DNA from: Candidatus Omnitrophota bacterium
Lineage (GTDB): Bacteria; Omnitrophota; Gorgyraeia; 1-14-0-20-64-10
Reading direction: 5' to 3'
NCBI GenBank assembly: GCA_016177405.1
Contig: JACOVG010000032.1
Span: forward strand, 1-58,626
Length of the DNA: 58,626 bases
Position numbers and translations under genes: made by a program
Shown: in pieces, positions 217 to 58,626 of the stretch
Layout of the letters: each line of letters starts with the position of its first letter
Position numbering within the stretch: position 1 is the first letter of the stretch
Notes under the pieces: generated by a model
Databases searched by the model: none
Seen by the model: the letters and a program-made list of their open reading frames with translations, nothing else
Told to the model about the DNA's origin: nothing

Positions 217-1149
217 GTGAAACCCAGGCATCTTATTTCCATTCAGGATTTGTCGGCTCAAGAGATCGAAGCCCTTTTTCGGGAGACCGCCGGCTTAAAG
301 AAGGCCAGGGGCTCCTCCACGGCGCTTGCAGGGAAGACGTGGGGGCTTCTCTTTGAAAAACCATCGGTCCGGACCCGGGTCTCCTTTGAGGTGGGAATCG
401 CCCAGCTGGGCGGCCGGTCTCTCTACATCGGGCCGGTGGAGCTCCAGAACGGCAAGCGGGAATCGGCCAAGGATGTGGCCTGCGTCCTTTCCAGGTACCT
501 TGATGGGATCATCGCCCGCACCTTCCGCCATGAGGACGTGGTGGAGATGGCCCGGTGGGCTGTTGTCCCGGTCGTGAACGGCCTCTCGGACGTGGAGCAT
601 CCCTGCCAGGCGCTGGCCGACGGCTTCACCCTTTGGGAGAAATTCGGCAAGGTCCGCGGCGTCCGGATCGCCTTCGTGGGAGACGGCAACAACGTCTGCC
701 ACTCCCTGATGCTCCTGGCGGCGCTCCTCGGGGCCCATCTGAAGCTGGCCTGCCCGGCCGGCTACGGCCCGCGAAAGGATCTCCTGCGCTGGGCGAAGGA
801 GCGCGCGGCCCGAAGCGGCGGCTCGATTCTGAGCACCGGCTCCGCCGGGGAGGCGGCCTCCGATGCCCAGGTCGTTTACACCGATGTCTGGGCCAGCATG
901 GGGCAGGAGAAGGAACGTTCGAAACGGGGCAAGATCTTTGCCGGTTATCAGGTGAACGCAAAGCTCATGAAGCGGGCCGCCCCCCAGGCCCTTTTCATGC
1001 ACTGCCTGCCGGCCCATCGGGGCGAGGAGGTCACCGACGAGGTGATGGACAGCCGGCATTCCATTGTCTATGATCAAGCGGAGAATCGGCTTCATGCGCA
1101 GAAGGCCGTCCTGTTAAGATGGACGGCGCGAGGAGGCGGGAAGCGATGA
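217..1149 (+). CDS. argF: ornithine carbamoyltransferase
   Basis: FEKPSVRT (STRT-like) carbamoyl-phosphate motif, HPCQ, GDGNNV, SMG, HCLP; precedes argG-argH. Confidence 0.96.
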   Translation: MKPRHLISIQDLSAQEIEALFRETAGLKKARGSSTALAGKTWGLLFEKPSVRTRVSFEVGIAQLGGRSLYIGPVELQNGKRESAKDVACVLSRYLDGIIARTFRHEDVVEMARWAVVPVVNGLSDVEHPCQALADGFTLWEKFGKVRGVRIAFVGDGNNVCHSLMLLAALLGAHLKLACPAGYGPRKDLLRWAKERAARSGGSILSTGSAGEAASDAQVVYTDVWASMGQEKERSKRGKIFAGYQVNAKLMKRAAPQALFMHCLPAHRGEEVTDEVMDSRHSIVYDQAENRLHAQKAVLLRWTARGGGKR

Positions 1150-2318
1150 AAAAGATAGTCTTGGCTTATTCCGGCGGGCTGGACACATCGGTCGCGATCC
1201 GGTGGCTTAGCCAAAAGGGGTTTCAGGTGATCGCCTTCCTGGCCGATGTCGGCCAGGGCGAGGACTTTGGCCCCATTCGCCGGCGGGCCCTGGCCTGCGG
1301 GGCGAGCCAGGTGGTGATCAAAGACCTTCGGGAGTCTTTCGCGCGGGAGTACATTCTGCCGGCCCTGCGCGCCGGCGCCGTCTATGAAAGGAAGTACTTG
1401 CTCGCCACCGCCTTGAGCCGCCCCCTCATCGCCAAGGCCCTGGGGGAAGCGGCCGTGGCCCACGGCGCGCGAACCGTGGCCCACGGCTGCACCGGCAAGG
1501 GCAACGACCAGGTCCGCCTGGAGGTGACCCTGAAGATCCTCTTTCCGCGGCTGGCGGTTCTGGCCCCCCTGCGGGAATGGGAGCTCAAGTCCAGGGCCGA
1601 GGAGATCCGCTATGCCGCCCGGCACAAGCTGCCGATCGCGCCTCCTTCCCAATCGCGTTTCTCCATCGATCAGAATCTCTGGGGGGTTTCCATTGAAAGC
1701 GGCCCGCTGGAGGATCCTTGGGTTGAGCCGCCGCCGGAGGCCTATCAGTGGACGAAGGAGCCCTCGCGGGCTCCGGCCCGGCCTCTCTTGGTCACGGTGG
1801 ACTGGCTGCGGGGCGTCCCGGCAGGCATCAACGGCAAGCGCCTCTCCTTGACGCGCTTGATCGAGCGCCTCAACCACCTGGGTTCCGCCCACGGGATCGG
1901 ACGGAGCGACCTGATCGAGGACCGGCTGGTGGGAATCAAATCCCGGGAGGTCTACGAGGCGCCGGCGGCCCACATCCTTCATGCCGCCCACCAGGAGCTG
2001 GAACAGCTCACCCTGGACCGGGAAATGCTGATCTTCAAGGAGATTGTCGCCGGCCGCTATGCCCGGCTGGTGTACGACGGCTTGTGGTTCACGCCTCTCA
2101 AGGCCGCGCTGGACCGGTGGGTGGATGAGAGCCAGCGCCGGGTGAGCGGAAGGGTACGGCTCAAGCTGTACCGGGGGACCTTGGCGGCGGTGGGGCGCGG
2201 TTCGCCCAACGCCCTTTACCGGAAGGCCCTGGCGACGTATCAGGGGAAGGATGAGTTTGACCAGCGATGGGCCGGTGGCTTCATCGCGCTCTGGGGGCTT
2301 CCCTATGCCAAGCCCTAG
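1146..2318 (+). CDS. argG: argininosuccinate synthase
   Basis: KIVLAYSGGLDTS, HGCTGKGNDQVR, GIKSREVYEAP; ATG 1146 overlaps argF stop. Confidence 0.97.
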   Translation: MKKIVLAYSGGLDTSVAIRWLSQKGFQVIAFLADVGQGEDFGPIRRRALACGASQVVIKDLRESFAREYILPALRAGAVYERKYLLATALSRPLIAKALGEAAVAHGARTVAHGCTGKGNDQVRLEVTLKILFPRLAVLAPLREWELKSRAEEIRYAARHKLPIAPPSQSRFSIDQNLWGVSIESGPLEDPWVEPPPEAYQWTKEPSRAPARPLLVTVDWLRGVPAGINGKRLSLTRLIERLNHLGSAHGIGRSDLIEDRLVGIKSREVYEAPAAHILHAAHQELEQLTLDREMLIFKEIVAGRYARLVYDGLWFTPLKAALDRWVDESQRRVSGRVRLKLYRGTLAAVGRGSPNALYRKALATYQGKDEFDQRWAGGFIALWGLPYAKP

Positions 2319-47795: not shown

Positions 47796-48776
47796 CTATT
47801 TCTCCTCTTTTTGAAGAGCCTGCAAAAGGGTTGCCCGAGTCTTCTCTTGTTGACCCAGCATAACCCGGGAAAGCTCGGTTTCCTCCACCACGTAGTCCAG
47901 CACTTTCGCCTCATCAAGAGCTTGGTAGCCAAGCCGGCGTTCGCGCCTCTGCCAAAAACCGAGGATGTGGCCTGCTCCGGCACCGATGTAACTGCCATAG
48001 GGCAATCCCGCCTGCCCGCCTCCGTAGGTCCCAAAAGCCGGGTAGAGGGTCGAATAGGCGTGCAATTCGCCCTCCCGGTCCTTCTGCTCTTTCAGGTGTT
48101 GGATGGCAAGGTCAGAGGCGGTTTGCTCTTGGCTAAGCTCGATGGGAACCAAGACCCGCCCCACCGCGTAGAGCCCGGGAGACGGGTTCTGGGAAAAATC
48201 CACCGCATGGCCTGCTTCGTGAAGGGCAATGGCGGAGTCGTCGGAAAAGAGGTGGATCGTGTTGGTATAGGGGTTGTAGTGATCTCCCCCTAACACCCGG
48301 CCGGTGAGGGAAGACCACAGGGTGACTGGGATTCCGGGAAAGACCCGGAAATACCACTCCACCCGTTTGTTCTGAGTCAGCCGCTTAAGCTCTCCGAAGG
48401 GAGTCCATTGGTTGATTCTTACCTTTACGTCCTTCGCGGCTTCCGGGTGAGCGGCTAGGAATTTCTTGAGGGACGCCTCTGTCTTTTCCGAAACGCTGTG
48501 GCTGTCTACCTTGGAGTTAAGGAGAATTAACTTTTTGGGCAGGCTTAGCAAATTGCCGAGAGCGTCCAGAACCCACACGGGACGCCCCCGTTCAATCTGC
48601 GGAGAGACCGCTCGTTGATCAGCTTCCTCTGCCCAAAGGGACGAGCCGCAGATTACAAAAGACAGGCCCAGGCAGAGGAACAGGCCTAGGTTCTTCTGAG
48701 TTCTCCTATGCCGCCAGACCGTTTCGAGCGATCTTCTGCCTGGTTTTTTCTGGTAACCGTTCCAGGTCCACGACAA
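47796..48776 (-). CDS. secreted protein with a HEXXH (zincin-like) motif
   Basis: signal peptide-like LGLFLCLGLSFVICGSSLWA, ALHEAGH motif, downstream E; start uncertain. Confidence 0.6.
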   Translation of the reverse strand: MSWTWNGYQKKPGRRSLETVWRHRRTQKNLGLFLCLGLSFVICGSSLWAEEADQRAVSPQIERGRPVWVLDALGNLLSLPKKLILLNSKVDSHSVSEKTEASLKKFLAAHPEAAKDVKVRINQWTPFGELKRLTQNKRVEWYFRVFPGIPVTLWSSLTGRVLGGDHYNPYTNTIHLFSDDSAIALHEAGHAVDFSQNPSPGLYAVGRVLVPIELSQEQTASDLAIQHLKEQKDREGELHAYSTLYPAFGTYGGGQAGLPYGSYIGAGAGHILGFWQRRERRLGYQALDEAKVLDYVVEETELSRVMLGQQEKTRATLLQALQKEEK

Positions 48777-49191
48777 AAAGAAGATCTCCTTTCGTGTCCT
48801 TCAGGGAGGCGCCCATTCGGTCCAGGGCCATGGTCACTTCGTCGGGAGTGAGTTTATAGGCCGAGCCACTGGCAAAATCAATGACAATCCCAACGATGCC
48901 TCCGAACAGGATGTTCCCGAACAGCCAGCCGTCTACCGTCCGCCGCAGGGAAACCTCCACCGGCTTGTAGCCTTGCTTCTCGAAGGTCAGCACGTAGCCA
49001 ACCTCTTTCCGGTTGAGGGACAGAACCCCTGGAGTTGTCGTTGCCATGCTGTTGAGGTTGACCCGAACCACCGCGCCCGAGGGACTGGACATCACCCGTA
49101 CACTCTGCTGGGAGCCGTGAATGATGCTGGCGCATCCCGCAAGCAGCGCAGCCACTAGAACGAGTGTCGTTGGACGAATGAAGCGCTTCAT
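48706..49191 (-). CDS. lipoprotein with a PEGA-like domain
   Basis: lipobox LAGC, SSPSGA.V, KQGY, GNILFGG..IDFASG.AYKL. Confidence 0.75.
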   Translation of the reverse strand: MKRFIRPTTLVLVAALLAGCASIIHGSQQSVRVMSSPSGAVVRVNLNSMATTTPGVLSLNRKEVGYVLTFEKQGYKPVEVSLRRTVDGWLFGNILFGGIVGIVIDFASGSAYKLTPDEVTMALDRMGASLKDTKGDLLFVVDLERLPEKTRQKIARNGLAA

Positions 49192-49868
49192 CTTACCTCC
49201 TCTTGATTTGTCACGGCGTTTGTCTGTCCGGAAGCCAGTTGCTGGAGCGCGCTGGAGATGGCCCCCCGGCTGGAAATGTGCTGGACCGCGTCGTGGATGG
49301 CCTCGCCTACCAGTTGCCCGGTTGCTGCCGGGGCCGCGAAGGTGTTAATCCGGCGCTGAACCTGCCCAGCCACAGAATCCCGCTCGAGGACCTTGCCCTG
49401 GCTGTCGTAGAGAGTCCCGCCCAGGACAACCTTTGCGGTGGGGGGGTCCATCAGGGCGTCGAAAGATTCCACCGAGATGGATTGAATCGAGACGGCAAGC
49501 ACCCCCCGCGCGCCGTACTCGGCCGCCGCCCGCGCGAATGATTCGGGCGAGTCACCTGCGGAAACGTTCCCCAAGACTCCATTCATCTCTTGGTCATACA
49601 GCGCCACCACAAGCTCTCTCCCAACAAGCTGGGAGGGATCTTCATCCATCTTCAACTGCAAAGCGGAGATGGAGCCCAGCCGTTTTTTGTCCGCCCGCTC
49701 ATCCGAAGGGCGGGCCACCACCACCGTGATCGCTTTGGAACTGGGGCTGAAGGAATAGACGTCCGGCCCCTGCGGCAGCGTTGCCACCGCCGTCGCGCAC
49801 CCGGAAAGCAGTGCTGCCGTCGTGAACACCGTCAGAACTCTTGGCACGCTCTTCATGGATTGCCTCAT
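49188..49868 (-). CDS. lipoprotein of unknown function
   Basis: lipobox LSGC; SD GAGGAG. Confidence 0.7.
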   Translation of the reverse strand: MRQSMKSVPRVLTVFTTAALLSGCATAVATLPQGPDVYSFSPSSKAITVVVARPSDERADKKRLGSISALQLKMDEDPSQLVGRELVVALYDQEMNGVLGNVSAGDSPESFARAAAEYGARGVLAVSIQSISVESFDALMDPPTAKVVLGGTLYDSQGKVLERDSVAGQVQRRINTFAAPAATGQLVGEAIHDAVQHISSRGAISSALQQLASGQTNAVTNQEEVR

Positions 49869-50330
49869 CTACTCCTCTTGTTTTGAGAGATCGACGACAT
49901 CCACAACCCTGTCGTTTTCGTCATACGTGACCTCAAAGGACATCTTTGTTCCGTCAAAAACCATTTCAGTTGGAGTCCCTATAACCTCCCACAGACCCAG
50001 GGTGAAGATGTCCGCAGCTCCATGAAAAAGAGCTCGGCCCCCCTTTGCGACTTTACTATAACCTTGCCTGAAGGAGAAGACGTCCACTCTTTTTCCGTTC
50101 CTCATGTCGGTTAAAACCGGCGGACCCAGTTCCGCCGTAAGCAAGCTTCGGGGCTTCCCGTAGCTTAAAACGGACAGATCCTTTCTGGGCGGCTGTTTGG
50201 CAGCCATAAACACGGCGCAACCGGCGCTGGTGAGGACGAGGGCCAAGCAAGACGCGAAAGCCACAAACCGTTGAGGAAGCAGTTTAATCGAATTCCTCCC
50301 TGTTATATCAAGAACGCGCAAGGCGGACAA
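49869..50330 (-). CDS. lipoprotein of unknown function
   Basis: lipobox SAGC; ADIFTLGLWEVIGTPTE motif; start uncertain. Confidence 0.7.
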   Translation of the reverse strand: MSALRVLDITGRNSIKLLPQRFVAFASCLALVLTSAGCAVFMAAKQPPRKDLSVLSYGKPRSLLTAELGPPVLTDMRNGKRVDVFSFRQGYSKVAKGGRALFHGAADIFTLGLWEVIGTPTEMVFDGTKMSFEVTYDENDRVVDVVDLSKQEE

Positions 50331-50344
50331 ACGGTTCCCCCCGC

Positions 50345-50734
50345 TTATTGATTAAGTAGAACCTCCAATGTATCCAGGAAGCGGGACTCCCAGTTCTCGG
50401 CAAAAATGTTGGTGGCCATCACTTTTCTCGATATGACCTCTACTCGGGTGGAGGAAGTGTCGATCCTCTCAACGAAGACTGCCACCCTCTCTCCCCAACT
50501 AAAAGCGCTGATTCCTGTCTCGGCAAGAAGATATCCCTGTTTCTGATTCGACTCGGCGATGCCCAGCTGGAGGAGCTTGAGCGTTTGGTTTGCTTTTTTC
50601 CACACCGTTTCAAAGGGTGCTTGATAAACGCGCGACGACCCCCTTCCCCTCTCTCCTCGAACGGAAGTGAGTGTCGCGCACCCGCAGAGCAAGAGCACCA
50701 TCGGCAAAAATATCCAAGCTACTCCGCCCCGCAT
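50345..50734 (-). CDS. lipoprotein of unknown function
   Basis: lipobox LCGC; start set at ATG 50734. Confidence 0.68.
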   Translation of the reverse strand: MRGGVAWIFLPMVLLLCGCATLTSVRGERGRGSSRVYQAPFETVWKKANQTLKLLQLGIAESNQKQGYLLAETGISAFSWGERVAVFVERIDTSSTRVEVISRKVMATNIFAENWESRFLDTLEVLLNQ

Positions 50735-50790
50735 TTTATGTTTCCTCACTTGAAAACTATCGGCGCATTTCATCATTTTCTTTTTGGGGT

Positions 50791-51612
50791 CTAGAACCGG
50801 TAGCTCCCGACGGCGCTGACGGCCGTCTCGTCCACAAATCGGCCTTCCACGCCCAAGAGCCAGTCTTCCTTGAATTGGATGGAAAGACCCGCCACCACGC
50901 CGGCATGGTCGTCGGAGCGCCAGCCGGACTCCGAGAGATCGTCCGCCGCCGTGAGATTGATGTCCAGGTCATTCTCCTCGGCCGTCATCTGGGACCACCG
51001 GCCCCCCAGGTAAGGGGTGACCTGCCAATCCCCGTAACCGAATTCAAGCGTCCGGCCTATCGTGAAGGCGGCGTGGTAAGCCCTCGCTCGAACATTGCCC
51101 GTGGTGGTGGAAAAGGTCCCGTTGATGGAGCCGCTCCACTGGTTAAGGTCGCTCTCCCACTGAACGAATTGCGCGTCCATCTTGATCTTAAGGTCCCAAA
51201 ATTCTTCCAAGAAATCCTGCTGGGCGCTGATGCCTCCCCCGTACATGAAACCAAAATCGAAATCCTCCTTCACCAGCTCAAGGGTTCTGTTGTCGGTGCT
51301 CTCCAGCTCCAGATCGGCCACGCCCGCCAAGGCGTAAAGCTCCACGGGGGCCGCCGGGCTGTAGCTTATCCGGGCCGCGTGCGACTGCCCGGAATTCTCC
51401 TGGGAGCCGATGCCGCCGGGAACGGTCAAATCCCTGTCAAAAACAAAGTCGCTCTCCACCCCCACGCGAATCCTGTAGAAATCCTCCAGTTCCTCCTCAT
51501 CGCTTTGGGCCTTCACGATGGGTCCCCCCACCATCCCCGCGAAAGCCGCCTGCGCCATGAGCAGATTCAGCCCCGTGATAACCAAAAACAATGCCAGTAT
51601 TTTTCCACGCAT
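50791..51612 (-). CDS. outer-membrane beta-barrel protein
   Basis: signal peptide AFA|G, alternating beta strands, PYLGG, C-terminal YRF BAM signal. Confidence 0.78.
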   Translation of the reverse strand: MRGKILALFLVITGLNLLMAQAAFAGMVGGPIVKAQSDEEELEDFYRIRVGVESDFVFDRDLTVPGGIGSQENSGQSHAARISYSPAAPVELYALAGVADLELESTDNRTLELVKEDFDFGFMYGGGISAQQDFLEEFWDLKIKMDAQFVQWESDLNQWSGSINGTFSTTTGNVRARAYHAAFTIGRTLEFGYGDWQVTPYLGGRWSQMTAEENDLDINLTAADDLSESGWRSDDHAGVVAGLSIQFKEDWLLGVEGRFVDETAVSAVGSYRF

Positions 51613-51731
51613 CCCCGAATGCCCTCCCCTGGGTTCGCTATCCAAGGGATACCTTACCAAGTACCCCATACGCGATCAAGACAAACTCTTGCAGGAGAGA
51701 GAAACAGCGAGAAGAATCTAGATGGTACCGT

Positions 51732-52001: not shown

Positions 52002-52433
52002 TTAAGCCTTTACCTTGTACGTGATCCAGAAAATATCCTCTTTAACCTGCTTGACTGAAGGATCGCTTGCTTTAAGCTCTTTGCGGGTGTCCTTCTGTTC
52101 CTTCTTGCAAAAGGGACAGTGTTTTGGTGCGCCGCGTGTCAACCAGTCTTCAGTCCTTATCAGGTGGCCTCCACATGAACTGCATGGAGGCAAAGATTCC
52201 AAGATTAGTTTCCACCCTTCGCTGTTCTTCAGGCCCTCTTTCCTACGATCCCAGACGGGATCATTAAACGCGTTATACCAGAAGAGCGCCTGACACCTCT
52301 CACATTCAAGGCAGGCTACGTCCGTGTAAAGAATGGTCGAATCAAAAGTAACCTCATGGGATTTGTCGCAATCTTGACACTGCCGAACCGCCTTGTAAGC
52401 GGTCCATTCTCTGCGATCAACCTCATATCCCAT
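52002..52433 (-). CDS. Cys-rich zinc-ribbon protein, candidate immunity protein
   Basis: CQDC, CERC, CSSC, CPFC; TGATG overlap with the toxin stop; visibly more AT-rich. Confidence 0.7.
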   Translation of the reverse strand: MGYEVDRREWTAYKAVRQCQDCDKSHEVTFDSTILYTDVACLECERCQALFWYNAFNDPVWDRRKEGLKNSEGWKLILESLPPCSSCGGHLIRTEDWLTRGAPKHCPFCKKEQKDTRKELKASDPSVKQVKEDIFWITYKVKA

Positions 52434-55400
52434 CAGGGTGCCACCTTATTGAATTCCTTGATCAATTCCTCTCGGAGTACAACCACATTATTAACCGACC
52501 CATTTATGTCGGAAGGGGCTACAATCTTCCCCAGATCTGATGCTCGAGTTGCCGTGTCCCCCAAAGATCTAGAAACTTGCTCGGCTGGCAGGGTGTCGAG
52601 GGTAATTCGCCTGCTGTCCTTGAGCGCAATTTCATAAACGTCGTACTCAGCCCCAGGGTTGCGTCTAAGAAATTCTGAGACTGCCACGTTCTTGTCTTTT
52701 GAAGTGTACAAGACCTTGGTATCGAGCGAATTAAACCGGCCTTCAGCCGTGCTGAAACGCATCGGATTAGAAGTGCCTTTTGGAACTGCCCGGTAGACAA
52801 CCTCTGTTGCCTCGTCGGCACTATGGACGGCACCCTTGACGACAGAGTTGCCGGCTTTAAATTCCCAGGCGGTGCGGGTGAGCTTGAGCTCGCCCTGACC
52901 CACATCATATACCTTGCTGCCGATGCGGAAGAAGTTTTTGATGGAACCCCAGACGCGATCCAGACTACGGGCTGCGGTGGGGACATCGCCCACGATGCCG
53001 GTGGCTTTGCTGGCGACCTGCAAAGATTTCCCAAGGCCTTTGGTGGCGAGACCCACCGCAGGAAACAGACCAAAAGCCCTTAGGCCATCTTGAAGCAGGT
53101 ACATTGTGGCAGCACCGTAGTGGCCTTCTGCTGCAGCTTGTTTGGCCTGCTGGATGCCGACGCCGATCCTTAAGTCGTCCCCGAAGAGATCTACCGCGGC
53201 GGCGATGGTATGCAGCGTTCCTCCCGCCACCCAATTGCCATCGTCTGCGAAGGAATCGCCCTGGGTCTTCAGCCAGTTGATTCCCTTTTCCATGGCGCGG
53301 CTTAAAGCGGTAGATGCCTGCTCCTTGCTGACGGTGAGGGTCGCCTGTTCCTGCTGGAGGCGTGCTTGCTCGGCCGGCAGGGCATCCGGATTTTCAATCA
53401 AGGTCTGGAGTGTCGGCCCGAATGATTTGAGCATTGCCTCGGCGTTCTCAGCCCCCACCAATTTGGTCAGCTCCTCTTTCACCACAGCGAGAAATTGAGG
53501 CGCTGCTTGTTGAGCAGCTGTTCTTTGCTCTGGGGTCGGGTCATGCAGCGGCGGAACTGCCGCTTCCATAGCCTGAGCCAGGGCATGGAGCTTCTCAGGA
53601 GAAAGGTCGCTGAAGCCCTGTGCCTGGATCTTGGCATCCACGATCTGGCCGCTGGAATAGATGATGGTTGGCCGCAGTGCGATTTCGCGAGTGATGTCGC
53701 CGTCCAGGAGGCCGAACTTGTAGTCCTCGGAGAGGTCCACCACCTGGCCTTCGATGAACCGCCCATCGGGGCTAACGCGAACGGTGTCGCTGCCTTCTCT
53801 GGGGCTGACGAAGTAGCGGGTCTTGCCGGTGGCGGTATCTCGCCCCTCGATCAGGACGATATTGCCGCCGTAGACGGTGTATTCCTCGGTGATGCCACTG
53901 GGCGTATTGACCAGCACCTTGCCGTTGACGAGTCCAAAGCGGCCTTGCTCGTCTAGGCCAAAGCTTTTGTCGTTCGGGTTCGGCGATGAAATCTCCTTGA
54001 CCAGCCCGCGCGTGGGATCGAAGTAGGAACGAGCCAGGACAGCGTCGGTCGTCGCGTCGAGATACAGCTTGCTGTTCTCTTTGAAAGTGACCTCGGTGGT
54101 AAGTCGGCCGTCCTCCAGGGTGACCGCCTTGGCGTTGCCCAGCAGGAAGTCGGCGATGCCGCCCAGCTTCCAGATGGACTCGATGGCGTCCCGCTGGAAG
54201 ATGCTGCTGGCGTAGGTTTCAAGGGCGGTGGTGATGCCACGCTCCCGGATGATGTTGGAGAAGTCGTTGATCTTGGCAAGGTAGGTCGCCTGCTGGACGG
54301 GGTTGTAGGGTGCGTTGGGGTCGTAGCCGGTGCCCGGGGTGGAGAAATTCAGGACGGACTTCTTGAGGGATTCCGAGACCCCCTTGAAAACGTTGCCCTC
54401 ATACTTAAAGGCGCCGGAGATGGCCCCTGAAATGACGTTGGCCGAGAGGGCCTGGGTAAAGGGATCCAAGCCGATCTCATCGCCCAAGAGATCTATACCG
54501 AGGCTGGTGGCTCCATGGAGCAGGCCGTCACTGATGGACTTTGTGATGTCTGTGGCTTTCCCGCCTGCGGTGCCGACGGTGACCGCGGATTTAATCGGCA
54601 TACCGGCCAATTGGGAGATTCGCGGGTCGAGGCCGATGGATTCGCCGAGTTTCTGGATGCCATAGAAGGCGAGCTCGCCGGCGAGGGTGGGGGCAAGCTG
54701 GGTCTTGAGGGTGGTGCCGAGGGCATCGAGACCAGGGGGGATCGGCTTCATAACCACCTTCCCTGCTGAGTCGTAGACGACGTTGCCGGCATCGTCCAGC
54801 TTGGGGACTTGGGTGCCTACGGTTAGGGAGCCCACGATGGAGCCGACCCCGATGGAGGCGATCCCGGCCAGGGCGGGGTCGAGGCCGGCCTTGACAAGGC
54901 CCAGTTGGGTGCCGGCCACAGCGGTGGAGGTGAGGGCGCTGGAATAATCAAAGCCAAGGTGGAATGACCCTCCCGAGAAACTCTGGACGCCGCCGGAGGC
55001 GAAGGAACCGGCGATGCCGGCGATGCCAGGATCAACCCCCAGGGCCTGGAGGCCGGTGGAGACACCAAGGTTGACGGCAGTCTGCAGGGCGAATTGACCC
55101 AGGCCTTGGAGGGAGAGGCCTCCGGAAAGGCCGGCCATCATCCCAATACCTTGGAAGAGGGTCTCAAAACCAAGGGCGAATTGGCCGCCAAGGAGGTAGG
55201 TGAGGCCTCCGAGGGCATGGCCGAGGCCGCTGACCATTGTTCCCAGGCCGTTGAAGATGAAGCCCAAGGGGCCCATGGCGTTGCCCAGGGCGGTAAAGGC
55301 AGCTCCGATCGTGTTAACGAGAGTGGCCAGGGCCCCGGTGATGAAGGAGATGGCGGTGGAGATGGCGGAGACGACCCCAACGGCCAGCTTGGCGAGGAAG

Positions 55401-58400
55401 ATAAAGAACATGAAGAAGAAGCTTCCGGTGATGCGCTGGGCTTCTGGGTCGGTCAGAACCTGGTAGGCGTGGGGAGGAGCGCGGGAAGAGAGGATGGCTC
55501 CCTGCCAGACCTGGAGGAACTCCGCTTGGGTCATGGTGAGGGTTTGGCCGGTGGGGCCGGCGTTGGGCTCCCGGTAGGTGACGGTGCCGTCGGCGGCAAT
55601 CACGGTCACCAGGATGTAGTGATTGCCGTTGATGTGAGCGATGACGGGAGAAGCGATTCCCGCTTGCGCGGGAATGACAAGGGCGCGTAAGTCCTCAAAG
55701 GAGACGCGGGAGGGGGTGGCGGAGGCGCCATGAAGCTTGGCGACGCGCTGGAGGGCGAAGAGGGACAGTTCCATGTCCCCGGTGGTCTTCGGGTTGATGG
55801 TGCCGGTCAGGATGTCCACAAGGAGGGTTTGGACAGCGAGGGTGGTGAAATCTGGCGATTGCTTCGTCCCGCCTTCGGCGCTCCTCGCAATGACCGCCTC
55901 GATGTATTCCTTCAAGGGCAGGAAGGCGGAGTAGCCGAAGTGGAGGGAGTTGGAGTCAAGCCAGGCCAGGATGCGGTCAATATCTGAAGCGGAAAGGGGG
56001 ACGATTTCGGAGGGGGTGAGGCCGAGGGAAGAGATGAGATTTCTCGCTTCGCTCGAAATGACGGAAGTATCGCCGGTGGCAATGACGACGTAATCCTGCA
56101 ACCAGGAGGCGACGCGGCGCTTGATCTCGGAGACGTCGGAGGCGCGGGGGGCGTAATCTGGCAGGACGCGGATTCGCTGGGTGAGATCGGCAAGGTCCAC
56201 CTTGGCCGAGGGATCCGAGCCATAGCGGCTGTAGAGGCGCTCCACCTCCTGGGTGACTTCCTGCTCGGAGGGATCCCGGCCGATCGTGTCCCGGTAGGCG
56301 CGGATCAGGATGGTGGTGAGCTCCTGGCGGAGAATCGCTTTGGCGAGCTCGACCTGCTTGACATGGATCTCGGTGAAGGCCTGGATGGTCTGGGACTCCA
56401 CCTCCTGGCGGACCGATTCCACCTGGGCGTTGAGCTGTCCCAGGGCCTCGGCGTATTGGTTGTCCAAGTTGGACAAGGCGTCTCGGACTTGATTCATCCC
56501 GGCGCGAATCTGGTCCATCGCTTGGGATTTGGCACTCTTGCCCGCCTTGCCCTTGGCTTTCATGGCTTCGACATCGTTGAGCTTGTGCTGGAGAGAAGCC
56601 TGTTGATCGGTGAGCTGGGCGCGGGCGGCAGAAGCTCGGTTGGCCAGGTCCTGGTAGGCAACTCCCTTCTGGCGGGCCAGCTCCTCCAGGGCCTGGGTGC
56701 GGCGCTGGATCACCTCGGCCTCGGCATTGGTGATCTGGTCGAAGATCTCCTGGCGAGCGCCGATCAGGGTGGTCTTGGTGAGGCGGCCGGCGGCATCGTA
56801 GTCAAAGGTGGTGGTTATGCGGCCGGAGGAATCCAGGGTCAGGATGGGGCGGCTCTCCTCGTACAGGGTGACCATGCCACTGGCAAAGGTCTGGGTGAGA
56901 AGCTGGCCTTCGGCGCCAAACTCCCGCTCGATGACGGCGTCATCCGGGAAGCCCTCGGTGAGGAGCTGTCCCTCTGGAAGGGCCAGCCGGGCCAGACGGT
57001 GGATGGTGACCTGGGCGCCGCGCTGTTCGTTGAAGGCGGACAGATCAGGCACCTGGATCTGAAGACTCTGCTCCCTGCCCTGCAGGTCTGTGTAGTGGAT
57101 CGTCTCGGGCTTGAGACTACGGAGGGTCTCGAGCTGGTCCTGGGCAAGGTCTTTGGCGTAGGAGACCTCCCAGCGGGTGCCGGATGGTTCTTCGATGGCG
57201 ATGAGGTTGTTGTCTGAATAGGTGCGGATCGCGCCGGAGGAATCGGTGATGCGGGTGAGAGATTGCTTCGCCCCACCCTCGGTGGGGCTCGCAATGACGT
57301 CAGAGTAACTGTAGGTGAAGGTTTCGCGGGGTTTGCCCTGGTAGGTGACTACGGCGCGGGAGAGGACGGGGCTGTGGTCACTGTGAAGCGAAGCCAAAGC
57401 AATCTCGTCTTGAGATTGCTTCGCGCCTTCGGCGCTCGCAATGACGGACTCCACTTCGCCTCCTCGCAATGACAAGGTGCCCTGCTCCACCAGGCGGCGC
57501 AGGGAGGCACGGTCGGCGGGGAGCTCCAAGGAGCGCAGCTGGGCGGGGTCGCTTAAGAGGAGGAGCTCTGCCGGGCCTTCGATGAGCTGGGCGTTGTCAA
57601 AGTAGGCCGAGGCCTCGAAGCCGTTCACCTTGATCCAAGCGTTGAAGTTGATGCTTCCGGTGGTGATGGTGTGGGTGATGGTGAGGAGGTGCCACTCGTT
57701 GTCCCCGGGATGAAAGGCAGAGAAGTCGTACTCGTTGGAGGAAAGGCCGATACGGGCGGCGCCCGGACGGTCGGACTTGACCCAGACCTCCAGGGTGAAG
57801 GTTCTTCCGGCAAGGGCCCGGACCTCCGGGGAGTAGGGGGGAAGGATGTCCTGGTAGATGAAGGAGTAGTCGCTTCCGTCGGAGCCGTTGGCCAGCTTGA
57901 GAGGCGGGGTGCCCAATTGAACGGAGGAGGTTTCCTGGCGGACATGGGACGGATCGGTTTCCTGGGAGACGGAGTTGCCGGAGCCGCCGCTCCATCTCCA
58001 GCCATCGGGGGCCTGCTGGCCTCCCTGGGACCAGCTTTCGAAGGAGGGGTCAGCCAGGGGATAGGGCGAGAGGGAGTCCGGCTTGGTCAGGTAGCGGCCA
58101 TCCGGGGTGGTTAAGCCCACCACCTGCCAGGGCTGGACCGAGGAAGCCCGCGCATAGTGGATGACGGCGCCGCTCGCGAGGGTTTGGGCGGCCCCAGCGG
58201 CAGTGGCGAGCGCCTCATTTAAGGGATCGGAATAACCGGCGGGGTCGGTGGTGTACTCGTAGGCGGTGACGGCGCCGTCGGGGTCGGTCTGGGAGATAAG
58301 CAGGCCCTCGCGGTAGCGCTTGGTGAGGCCGGTGGCAAGTTCCTTGATAACGGTTATTTCGCTGCTGTCCGCGTCGAACTCGTAGGCGTAGTCGTAAAGG

Positions 58401-58626
58401 AGTTGGGGGGCGGTGGGGTCGGGGTCATCGCGAGGCGAAGCCGAAGCAATCTGACCTTGCGAGATTGCTTCGTCGCCCTCGCCAACGCTCGGGCTCCTCG
58501 CAATGACGAGAGTTCCCTCCGTGATCAGTTGTCGGATGGAGGGTTCGTCCGAGGGAAGAAGGAGATGGGCCAGGGCCGGATGCTCGGCCAGGGTGGCGTA
58601 GACGGGGCGAGGAGGGGGCGGAGGAA
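52433..58626 (-). CDS. 3' part of a giant polymorphic-toxin-like protein (YD-like repeats, CBM-like, coiled coil, C39-like, hydrophobic segment, C-terminal RES domain); 5'-truncated by the window edge
   Basis: frame stays open from 58123 to the window end (manual translation); FDYDAAGRL and YREGLLISQTDPDG repeats; RES motifs VYR, GRFN, LYTS, SEF, APS, NNVVV. Confidence 0.82.
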   Translation of the reverse strand, partial: PPPPPRPVYATLAEHPALAHLLLPSDEPSIRQLITEGTLVIARSPSVGEGDEAISQGQIASASPRDDPDPTAPQLLYDYAYEFDADSSEITVIKELATGLTKRYREGLLISQTDPDGAVTAYEYTTDPAGYSDPLNEALATAAGAAQTLASGAVIHYARASSVQPWQVVGLTTPDGRYLTKPDSLSPYPLADPSFESWSQGGQQAPDGWRWSGGSGNSVSQETDPSHVRQETSSVQLGTPPLKLANGSDGSDYSFIYQDILPPYSPEVRALAGRTFTLEVWVKSDRPGAARIGLSSNEYDFSAFHPGDNEWHLLTITHTITTGSINFNAWIKVNGFEASAYFDNAQLIEGPAELLLLSDPAQLRSLELPADRASLRRLVEQGTLSLRGGEVESVIASAEGAKQSQDEIALASLHSDHSPVLSRAVVTYQGKPRETFTYSYSDVIASPTEGGAKQSLTRITDSSGAIRTYSDNNLIAIEEPSGTRWEVSYAKDLAQDQLETLRSLKPETIHYTDLQGREQSLQIQVPDLSAFNEQRGAQVTIHRLARLALPEGQLLTEGFPDDAVIEREFGAEGQLLTQTFASGMVTLYEESRPILTLDSSGRITTTFDYDAAGRLTKTTLIGARQEIFDQITNAEAEVIQRRTQALEELARQKGVAYQDLANRASAARAQLTDQQASLQHKLNDVEAMKAKGKAGKSAKSQAMDQIRAGMNQVRDALSNLDNQYAEALGQLNAQVESVRQEVESQTIQAFTEIHVKQVELAKAILRQELTTILIRAYRDTIGRDPSEQEVTQEVERLYSRYGSDPSAKVDLADLTQRIRVLPDYAPRASDVSEIKRRVASWLQDYVVIATGDTSVISSEARNLISSLGLTPSEIVPLSASDIDRILAWLDSNSLHFGYSAFLPLKEYIEAVIARSAEGGTKQSPDFTTLAVQTLLVDILTGTINPKTTGDMELSLFALQRVAKLHGASATPSRVSFEDLRALVIPAQAGIASPVIAHINGNHYILVTVIAADGTVTYREPNAGPTGQTLTMTQAEFLQVWQGAILSSRAPPHAYQVLTDPEAQRITGSFFFMFFIFLAKLAVGVVSAISTAISFITGALATLVNTIGAAFTALGNAMGPLGFIFNGLGTMVSGLGHALGGLTYLLGGQFALGFETLFQGIGMMAGLSGGLSLQGLGQFALQTAVNLGVSTGLQALGVDPGIAGIAGSFASGGVQSFSGGSFHLGFDYSSALTSTAVAGTQLGLVKAGLDPALAGIASIGVGSIVGSLTVGTQVPKLDDAGNVVYDSAGKVVMKPIPPGLDALGTTLKTQLAPTLAGELAFYGIQKLGESIGLDPRISQLAGMPIKSAVTVGTAGGKATDITKSISDGLLHGATSLGIDLLGDEIGLDPFTQALSANVISGAISGAFKYEGNVFKGVSESLKKSVLNFSTPGTGYDPNAPYNPVQQATYLAKINDFSNIIRERGITTALETYASSIFQRDAIESIWKLGGIADFLLGNAKAVTLEDGRLTTEVTFKENSKLYLDATTDAVLARSYFDPTRGLVKEISSPNPNDKSFGLDEQGRFGLVNGKVLVNTPSGITEEYTVYGGNIVLIEGRDTATGKTRYFVSPREGSDTVRVSPDGRFIEGQVVDLSEDYKFGLLDGDITREIALRPTIIYSSGQIVDAKIQAQGFSDLSPEKLHALAQAMEAAVPPLHDPTPEQRTAAQQAAPQFLAVVKEELTKLVGAENAEAMLKSFGPTLQTLIENPDALPAEQARLQQEQATLTVSKEQASTALSRAMEKGINWLKTQGDSFADDGNWVAGGTLHTIAAAVDLFGDDLRIGVGIQQAKQAAAEGHYGAATMYLLQDGLRAFGLFPAVGLATKGLGKSLQVASKATGIVGDVPTAARSLDRVWGSIKNFFRIGSKVYDVGQGELKLTRTAWEFKAGNSVVKGAVHSADEATEVVYRAVPKGTSNPMRFSTAEGRFNSLDTKVLYTSKDKNVAVSEFLRRNPGAEYDVYEIALKDSRRITLDTLPAEQVSRSLGDTATRASDLGKIVAPSDINGSVNNVVVLREELIKEFNKVAP
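55655..55678 (-). repeat. in-frame palindromic element GTCATTCCCGCGCAAGCGGGAATC
   Basis: ATTCCC-N8-GGGAAT core; encodes VIPAQAGI. Confidence 0.75.
55857..55894 (-). repeat. in-frame palindromic element GTCATTGCGAG...CGAAGCAATC
   Basis: encodes VIARSAEGGTKQS. Confidence 0.8.
56036..56062 (-). repeat. in-frame palindromic element GTCATTTCGAGCGAAGCGAGAAATCTC
   Basis: encodes VISSEARNL. Confidence 0.75.
57259..57298 (-). repeat. in-frame palindromic element GTCATTGCGAGCCCCACCGAGGGTGGGGCGAAGCAATCTC
   Basis: encodes VIASPTEGGAKQS. Confidence 0.82.
57377..57473. repeat. inverted doublet of GTCA palindromic elements plus a partial third copy
   Basis: 57377-57406 (+, degenerate), 57412-57445 (-), 57454-57473 (-, partial). 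Confidence 0.8.
58424..58507. repeat. inverted doublet of GTCA palindromic elements
   Basis: GTCATCGCGAGGCGAAGCCGAAGCAATCT (58424-58452, +) facing GTCATTGCGAGGAGCCCGAGCGTTGGCGAGGGCGACGAAGCAATCTC (58461-58507, -). Confidence 0.82.

Follow-up and report, generated by a model that had tools for sequence, protein, structure and literature searches.

Among the closest described relatives of the system reported here are the C39 peptidase domains of the PCAT/AMS transporters (ComA, PCAT1, LahT), which are fused to an ATP-binding cassette (ABC) transporter and work in the cytoplasm with a Cys nucleophile. True leaders recognised by such domains end in GG, GA or GS and have Leu at position -12, Glu at -8 and Leu at -7, with leader residues -4, -7 and -12 occupying a hydrophobic groove (PMC6363468). 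The C39-like domains (CLDs) of RTX type 1 secretion transporters such as HlyB are C39 homologues without the catalytic Cys; they have Tyr, Leu or Asn at its position, a Trp stacked on the His, and a cargo without a GG motif (PMC8277102). In polymorphic toxins with RHS repeats, the C39-related domain Tox-PL-C39 is a terminal toxin domain with a Cys-His-Asp triad (Zhang et al. 2012, PMC3482391), and in StbD-CT, a C39 toxin domain from a CdiA-like protein, self-cleavage takes place in cis behind a Gly-Gly pair and requires reducing conditions (bioRxiv 10.64898/2026.05.07.723447). Several other papain-like families (menin, APC5867, DUF2145, DUF2272, DUF3750) carry a conserved Ser in place of the catalytic Cys, the other active-site residues being kept, a replacement called "especially intriguing and poorly explored" in the classification that lists them (PMC10318531). 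C39-related toxin domains in polymorphic toxins, cutting in cis by a C39 toxin and Ser-bearing papain-like families of unproven activity are already in print, as are C39 domains in giant Omnitrophota proteins together with the guess that the domains might cut these proteins (West-Roberts et al. 2023, 10.1101/2023.11.21.568195; 10.64898/2026.06.07.730766). Here we describe a C39-like domain with Ser at the position of the catalytic Cys, found in a long open reading frame (ORF) on the minus strand of contig JACOVG010000032.1 of a Candidatus Omnitrophota bacterium (assembly GCA_016177405.1); the contig was analysed over its whole length of 58,626 nucleotides and is called the window below.

We read residues ~885-1068 of this ORF as a self-contained processing cassette, a predicted Ser-type C39 peptidase together with its own cleavage site, and put the probability of that reading at roughly 60%. 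Like the PCAT/AMS domains, to which it is homologous, the domain has His and an acidic residue at the same places, and the attached motif shares Leu at -12, Glu at -8, the hydrophobic nature of -4 and a Gly-Ala/Ser pair next to the predicted cut. It differs from them in its nucleophile (Ser, not Cys) and the 4-residue insertion before it, in being internal to a long Sec-type protein without fusion to an ABC transporter, in having the site in the same chain, C-terminal to the domain, in the Ala at P7 and Arg/Lys at P3 of that site, and in a probably extracytoplasmic rather than cytoplasmic place of action. StbD-CT resembles the proposed cassette in that a C39 domain within a polymorphic toxin cleaves the chain to which it belongs, at a di-glycine motif of the adjacent linker, but its site lies upstream of the peptidase, the peptidase is itself the toxin and Cys is used, whereas in the Omnitrophota protein the site is downstream, the variable end would be the toxin, separate from the peptidase, and with Ser the step would not depend on redox state. 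Tox-PL-C39 occupies the end of its protein, unlike the present domain, which is internal (~1000 residues follow it), of the Ser type and paired with its own site. The Ser-bearing papain-like families are other families without a known substrate site, whereas here the presumed substrate is attached and conserved. The two reports on giant proteins concern the same protein family and phylum; a term search of the parts of them open to it found no Ser nucleophile, in-cis double-glycine site or module boundary at such a site, and a literature search at the level of titles, abstracts and selected passages found no account of a Ser-type C39 with a site of this kind.

Homology of the Ser-type domain to C39 peptidases

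The domain begins more than 880 residues into a YD-repeat protein. Pfam Peptidase_C39 (PF03412) exceeds its cut-off of 22 bits, reaching 27.5 bits over residues 949-1046 (32.4 bits in a scan of the organism's own genome); of the 133 profile positions, only 41-127 are aligned. Searching the PDB with the domain sequence alone gave no match, but a profile of 29 family members (A1) matches the peptidase domains of PCAT1 (7n87, E 1.4e-5) and LahT (6mpz, E 1.8e-5) and, weakly, ComA and StbD, and these alignments pair the His and Asp strands of the family with those of PCAT1 and LahT. When A1 was compared by hhalign with a profile of five Cys-type C39 domains from genomes of the same phylum (A2), the two were related with 97.8% probability (E 1e-12); the alignment pairs S899 with the invariant Cys, H1002 with the His and E1019 with the Asp, and the four residues 'HFGx' before S899 appeared as an insertion relative to the Cys-type domains. 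The commonest spacing between His and acid, 15 residues (64/112 homologues), equals that of H101 and D117 in LahT. From this profile homology the fold is predicted to be papain-like.

A sequence-only reading of window positions 55421-55960 had recognised a C39 pattern in this region, with GYSAF at the nucleophile position and the Glu of REPN in place of the catalytic Asp, in an ORF without visible Cys. All the peptide strings that it quoted are present on the minus strand, no Cys occurs in the 2063 residues, and the Pfam, PDB and hhalign matches put the resemblance beyond chance, the last of them setting the Ser of GYSAF on the catalytic Cys and the Glu of REPN on the Asp. Of the two His in AHINGNH, the second, H1002, holds the catalytic position and is invariant, while H997 is kept in 89/112 homologues only.

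Two other readings of the domain were considered and rejected. The invariant S954 as nucleophile was discarded, this residue aligning to a structural Ser/Thr in a G-x-S/T element common to Cys-type C39 domains. Descent from a whole PCAT (C39, membrane domain and ATPase) was dropped, as neither Pfam nor NCBIfam gives an ABC match and visual inspection of residues 1300-1650 reveals no Walker motif.

Conservation of the active-site residues and their codons

An exhaustive search with residues 870-1100 retrieved 285 representative proteins at E <=1e-3 (196 at <=1e-10), ranging in length from 229 to 7079 aa. The alignment used for counting holds 112 homologues, namely those of the best 150 that match in one unbroken stretch; matches split by insertions or truncated were excluded. 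A further 100 genomic loci were fetched from a 201-genome sample of the phylum. In five close relatives (P0003, P0006, P0010, P0011, P0012) the loop of the C39-like domain that leads into the catalytic-His strand (equivalent to residues ~983-990 of the ORF in the window) holds an insertion of 300-440 residues, and that of P0003 is a beta-propeller by Pfam.

The S899 column contains Ser in 107 and Cys in 5 of the 112 homologues and no other residue; among the genomic loci it is Ser in 70 and Cys in 30. Ser and Cys are thus the only residues at this position in 212 sequences, and His is found at the H1002 column in all of them (112/112 and 100/100). The third residue is acidic in 111/112 homologues (Glu 59, Asp 52, with one Asn) and in 94/100 loci, so that all the active-site positions named by the sequence-only reading, as well as the G-G/A/S pair discussed below, are conserved among the homologues. 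S954 is Ser in 112/112, and H895, within the family-specific insertion, is His in 108/112, being replaced by Asn or Thr in 4 of 5 Cys forms.

The codons at the nucleophile position are TCN (Ser) in 54 loci, AGC (Ser) in 16 and TGY (Cys) in 30. TCN and AGY serine codons are two substitutions apart, and TGY is one possible one-step intermediate between them; Brenner reportedly described such codon switching for catalytic serines. Trees built without the nucleophile columns require at least six changes among the three codon states (TCN, TGY, AGY), and a single clade of AGY forms is rejected (p-AU 0.018, approximately unbiased test). A column restricted to Ser and Cys, which keeps a nucleophile through such codon changes, speaks for a catalytic domain and not a dead one, and suggests that position 899 must remain a nucleophile.

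The same columns bear on the possibility that the domain is a pseudo-peptidase clamp, which would bind the leader-like helix without cutting it, as the CLDs of RTX exporters bind their cargo, and would keep the beginning of the hydrophobic segment bound or covered up to the arrival of the protein at its destination. This seems unlikely to us, even though Cys is absent from the protein, C39-like domains without catalytic activity are well known (PMC8277102), Ser is a weak nucleophile in this fold and occurs in papain-like families without shown activity (PMC10318531), and both leader and groove could be conserved for binding alone. The known non-catalytic forms have Tyr, Leu or Asn where the 212 sequences have Ser or Cys only, and their cargo lacks the GG motif, whereas the GG-type site is invariant here. 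Their Trp stacking on the His is replaced, the column six residues before the His being Ala in 69 homologues, Val in 21, Leu in 9 and Thr in 7, with no Trp among these four commonest residues (106/112). The His and the acidic residue are kept throughout the family, and binding alone would leave the invariant small pair (Gly, Ala/Ser) and the switching among TCN, TGY and AGY unexplained. Because the column is never without a nucleophile and the features typical of non-catalytic C39-like domains are missing, the aligned sequences favour Ser-His-Glu catalysis over binding of the leader without cleavage.

The double-glycine leader-like site

The predicted scissile bond lies between S1068 and F1069, ~25 residues beyond the C39-like domain, at the end of LTDPEAQRITGS, which has L at -12, E at -8, I at -4, G at -2 and S at -1. 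Site columns were counted in the 112 homologues and in the 96 loci with an aligned site. Position -12 is L/I in 103 of 112 homologues and L/I/V/M in 96 of 96 loci, position -8 is E/Q in 88 of 112 and 69 of 96, and position -4 is I/V in 109 of 112 and 93 of 96. R/K occupies position -3 in 106 of 112 homologues, and the Gly at -2 is invariant in both sets (112 of 112; 96 of 96). At -1 the homologues have A (65), S (43), G (2) or N (2), that is Ala, Ser or Gly in 110/112, and the loci have A/S in 92 of 96. The spacing from P12 to P2 shows no indel in 112/112 homologues, and 23 to 40 residues of linker separate the motif from the end of the domain.

In its strict form, the pattern [LIVM]x3[EQ]x3[IVL]xG[GAS] was found at the expected place in 111/148 homologues and elsewhere 37 times in 436,991 residues. 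The sequence-only reading had pointed to a leader of this type at the start of the hydrophobic segment; the counts lift that resemblance above chance, and FFFMFFIF does begin at residue 1069, right after LTDPEAQRITGS. NCBIfam leader-peptide families gave no match to residues 1038-1128. Other known ways of cutting at such a place were tried and set aside. An N-to-O acyl shift at Gly-Ser is ruled out, P1 being Ala in 65/112 homologues, so that Ser is not generally available. A prepilin-peptidase-type site (Gly/Phe with Glu at +5) does not fit a motif with one residue between Gly and Phe, a +5 column of Leu/Ile/Trp/Phe, and a location thousands of residues from the N-terminus.

Distribution and modularity within the phylum

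The family profile is matched in 116/201 sampled genomes, in ORFs of up to 45,037 aa. Where relatives carry names, these are Candidatus Omnitrophota for all three of one search, 5/6 of a second and 2/2 of a third, the exception being a 3.1-kb contig labelled Victivallales. What comes after the site varies. In the class to which the present ORF belongs, a very hydrophobic stretch (first 20 residues, mean Kyte-Doolittle hydropathy >1.5) comes next, as seen in 85/112 homologues, but 25/26 of the Cys forms with a site continue in hydrophilic sequence, as does the domain-plus-motif unit in giant ORFs of 5,131 to 45,037 aa. Since the motif is kept where hydrophilic sequence comes next, it is part of the peptidase module and not of the membrane segment. 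Among the matches listed, many profile matches in ORFs >10,000 aa stop 1-5 residues past the site, so that the conserved module ends at the predicted cut.

These observations bear on whether the motif might only have a structural role at a junction, for instance in capping a helix ahead of a membrane helix, with its likeness to a leader coincidental and no cutting or binding at that place. Basic-Gly-small motifs are common at membrane interfaces, the hydrophobic segment follows at once in 51/54 TCN-type loci, and P7 is not Leu. We nevertheless hold this explanation to be very improbable, given that four independent leader positions (P12, P8, P4 and P2-P1) are matched with zero indels against a background of 37 occurrences in ~437,000 residues, that motif and spacing persist ahead of hydrophilic sequence, and that the motif is the exact end of the conserved module.

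A further possibility is that the double-glycine site is real but cut in trans, by another copy or by another peptidase, with the adjacent domain serving other substrates. C39 peptidases normally process separate peptides in trans, the variable linker of 23-40 residues imposes no fixed cis geometry, and some ORFs carry several C39-like domains. However, one domain is paired with one site in 96/100 loci, and the precedent of StbD favours cutting in cis. The organism's own genome, 93% complete, contains no second C39 match; no PCAT would thus be available to cut the site, and a different enzyme is unlikely. We rate cutting in trans, in either form, as improbable. One copy of the protein may cut another, and this would amount to a variant of the explanation preferred here, a peptidase acting on the site in its own chain.

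Some individual loci deserve mention. One 45,037-aa frame holds two Ser-type cassettes ~83 kb apart (G111:C9:9077-9604 and 92354-92884; L016, L027), both ending in ...IRG[AS] followed by hydrophilic sequence. Three tandem C39-like domains occur in one 3273-aa frame (G037:C7:3692-7858; L029, L090); L029, one of the two downstream copies, has no alignable double-glycine site. Separate, canonical Cys-type C39 domains lie between TPR-like and RHS repeats in frames of 1628 and 2082 aa (L012:1501-1920, L014:1501-1911), with ...ELVSIKGG ~25 residues further on, directly before the RHS repeats; this is a second, independent architecture in the phylum that joins a peptidase to its own site. In genome G099, L015 and L028 carry Thr in place of the Cys, lack the His and are not followed by a recognisable double-glycine site, so that they look like decayed versions of C39-like domains; as near-copies they count as one observation.

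Architecture of the locus

Features of the ORF and its surroundings are collected in Table 1. The 2063 aa (frame 1) are the visible part of an ORF whose 5' end is lost beyond the end of the contig. The front of the gene is probably a 595-aa frame that runs off the end of contig C9 of the same genome (G000:C9:31081-32865, + strand), aligns with the first 400 residues of the closest relatives and has a signal-peptide-like sequence at its start. The source assembly measures 1.7 Mb, and no paralogue of the ORF was found in it.

Table 1. Features of the minus-strand ORF and of the adjoining gene in the window
Feature	Window positions	ORF residues	Strand	Evidence or remark
Long ORF, polymorphic-toxin-like	52433..58624		-	YD/RHS repeats, coiled coil, C39-like domain, hydrophobic region, conserved domain, variable C-terminus
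REP/MITE-like units in ORF	55855-55897, 57259-57298, 57368-57476, 58415-58510		-	
C39-homologous peptidase domain	55487..55972	885-1046	-	Pfam, PDB profile search, hhalign
H895	55940..55942	895	-	family-specific 'HFGx' insertion just before nucleophile
GYSAF		897-901	-	string located in ORF
S899, codon TCC	55928..55930	899	-	position of catalytic Cys by hhalign
REP/MITE-like unit, in-frame copy within C39-like domain	55855..55897	911-916, 919-921	-	gives 11-residue insertion
ELSLFAL		952-958	-	string located in ORF
VAKLHG		961-966	-	string located in ORF
PVIAHINGNHYILV		993-1006	-	string located in ORF
H1002	55619..55621	1002	-	catalytic His position; aligns to His of PCAT1, LahT
VTYREPN		1015-1021	-	string located in ORF
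E1019	55568..55570	1019	-	catalytic Asp position; aligns to Asp of PCAT1, LahT
MTQAEFLQVWQG		1031-1042	-	string located in ORF
Leader-like motif LTDPEAQRITGS (P12 to P1)	55421..55456	1057-1068	-	conservation and fixed spacing
FFFMFFIF		from 1069	-	string located in ORF
Gly-rich hydrophobic region	54755..55420	1069-1290	-	19% Gly; starts with ~45 hydrophobic residues
Conserved domain	53675..54727	1300-1650	-	homologue coverage
Variable C-terminal part	52436..53674	1651-2063	-	common to 1/149 homologues only
RES-like end	52508-52798	1943-2039	-	Pfam RES 20.6 bits, below cut-off 23.2
143-aa ORF, candidate immunity protein	52002..52433		-	start overlaps toxin stop (TGATG); four CxxC pairs

RHS/YD repeats are detected in the ORF by the Pfam scan. 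The region of residues ~551-1650, comprising the last YD repeat, the coiled coil, the C39-like domain, the site, the 220-residue hydrophobic region and the conserved domain, is common to 49-146 of 149 homologues. The hydrophobic region is itself conserved in more than 100/149, and the 232 residues counted from 1069 to 1300 include only 13 charged ones. The conserved domain of residues 1300-1650 has no Pfam match and residues 1069-1660 have no PDB sequence match, and only two fragments were found as short stand-alone relatives of the hydrophobic and conserved parts. Other family members end in sequence unrelated to the C-terminus seen here, one of them in an alpha/beta-hydrolase match. The RES-like end also resembles NCBIfam Res_ParT (E 1.8e-4), at 21.3 bits well below the cut-off of 110, and a single-sequence search of the PDB with the C-terminus gave no match. 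A conserved body with a variable C-terminus fits a polymorphic-toxin-like protein, as do the small gene next to that end and the Sec signals of relatives. The sequence-only reading had proposed release of a bacteriocin-like fragment made of the hydrophobic segment and a RES domain; the hydrophobic region and RES-like end are there, but the fragment would measure ~995 residues and is no small peptide.

The 143-aa ORF that adjoins the variable end has no signal peptide and no family match; its four CxxC pairs make it zinc-ribbon-like, in contrast to the Cys-free toxin protein. A relative of the variable C-terminus occurs in only one other genome of the 201, and a relative of the 143-aa ORF in the same genome alone, directly downstream. 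To judge from this arrangement, the pair fits the layout of a polymorphic toxin and a candidate immunity gene. Directly downstream of the two, window positions 48706-51669 (minus strand) hold five genes: four are small and have signal sequences of the lipoprotein type, while the fifth encodes 292 aa, with a signal peptide at the start and Phe as the last residue, and resembles an outer-membrane barrel. A dedicated outer-membrane partner was considered and rejected, the outer-membrane-protein-like and lipoprotein genes not being linked to family members in other genomes.

Signal-peptide-like N-termini are present in 66/99 full-length relatives by a strict hydropathy rule, and in more by eye. 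The relatives are poor in Cys (median 1.8 per 1000 residues), and 25/150 have none. The signal-peptide-like starts, including the one on contig C9, and the absence of Cys from the visible protein hint at a place of action outside the cytoplasm. The organism's own genome has TolC-like and secretin genes and no match to a type VI secretion system sheath.

The repeat unit that interrupts the C39-like domain is of a kind resembling repetitive extragenic palindromic sequences or miniature inverted-repeat transposable elements (REP/MITE-like), with conserved ends of 11 and 12 nt flanking a variable GC hairpin. Its insertion lies in the loop after the nucleophile helix, and the inserted columns are gaps in 108 to 110 of the 112 homologues. 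The 11-mer occurs 33 times in the genome, and three copies of the unit are found in the 595-aa frame of contig C9. Five copies lie in frame and in coding orientation within the 2063-aa ORF, giving peptides of the form 'VIA(R)S...KQS'. The longest copy folds with z -2.9, and the unit matches no Rfam family.

Proposed processing mechanism

The following sequence of events would account for these features. The protein would be exported by Sec, after which the amphipathic leader-like helix, through L1057, E1061 and I1065, would dock in the groove of the peptidase and bring G1067-S1068 into the active site. Each molecule would be cut once, before F1069. The N-terminal YD-repeat/adhesin part would retain the peptidase and the leader, and the C-terminal piece of ~995 residues would start with a newly exposed, hydrophobic, Gly-rich end and finish in the variable RES-like toxin domain, against which the protein encoded by the next gene may protect the producer. 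Ser in place of Cys would allow the enzyme to keep working outside the reducing cytoplasm, independently of redox conditions.

Several points weigh against this reading. The equivalence of Ser and Cys comes from one profile-profile alignment (column confidence ~0.7) together with the Ser/Cys-only column, and the first 40 positions of the Pfam Peptidase_C39 model are unaligned. Ser is a poor nucleophile in papain-like scaffolds, and the published families that carry it are without demonstrated activity (PMC10318531). In this particular copy, the 11-residue insertion derived from the repeat unit lies 12 residues after S899 and might impair it. The site departs from classical leaders in having Ala instead of Leu at P7 and a conserved Arg/Lys at P3, and 4/100 loci are without an alignable one. 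The trees are compatible with Cys forms that arose just once (p-AU 0.068 for a single TGY clade). The contig ends within the gene, for which contig C9 is the probable source of the front part, and the hydrophobic segment could equally be an anchor in the membrane of the producer.

In its widest form, the proposal is that these proteins represent a natural lineage of C39 domains with a Ser nucleophile, moving repeatedly among Ser(TCN), Cys(TGY) and Ser(AGY), and forming, with its own double-glycine site, a portable self-cleavage cassette that cuts Sec-exported long and giant Omnitrophota proteins outside the cytoplasm, in the present case to unmask a membrane-inserting, toxin-carrying N-terminus. 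We consider the chances of this wider proposal to be about even.

Implications

The relatives are publicly annotated as 'cysteine peptidase family C39 domain-containing' or 'hypothetical', and the first of these labels is chemically wrong for most members. With the substrate attached to the domain, activity is directly testable. If the domain is active, it would provide good support for the existence of a papain-like (clan CA) peptidase working with Ser, and a redox-insensitive, sequence-specific module that cleaves itself might also have potential as a tool. If the proposal is true, it would provide a concrete rule for where the long and giant proteins of the Omnitrophota are cut.

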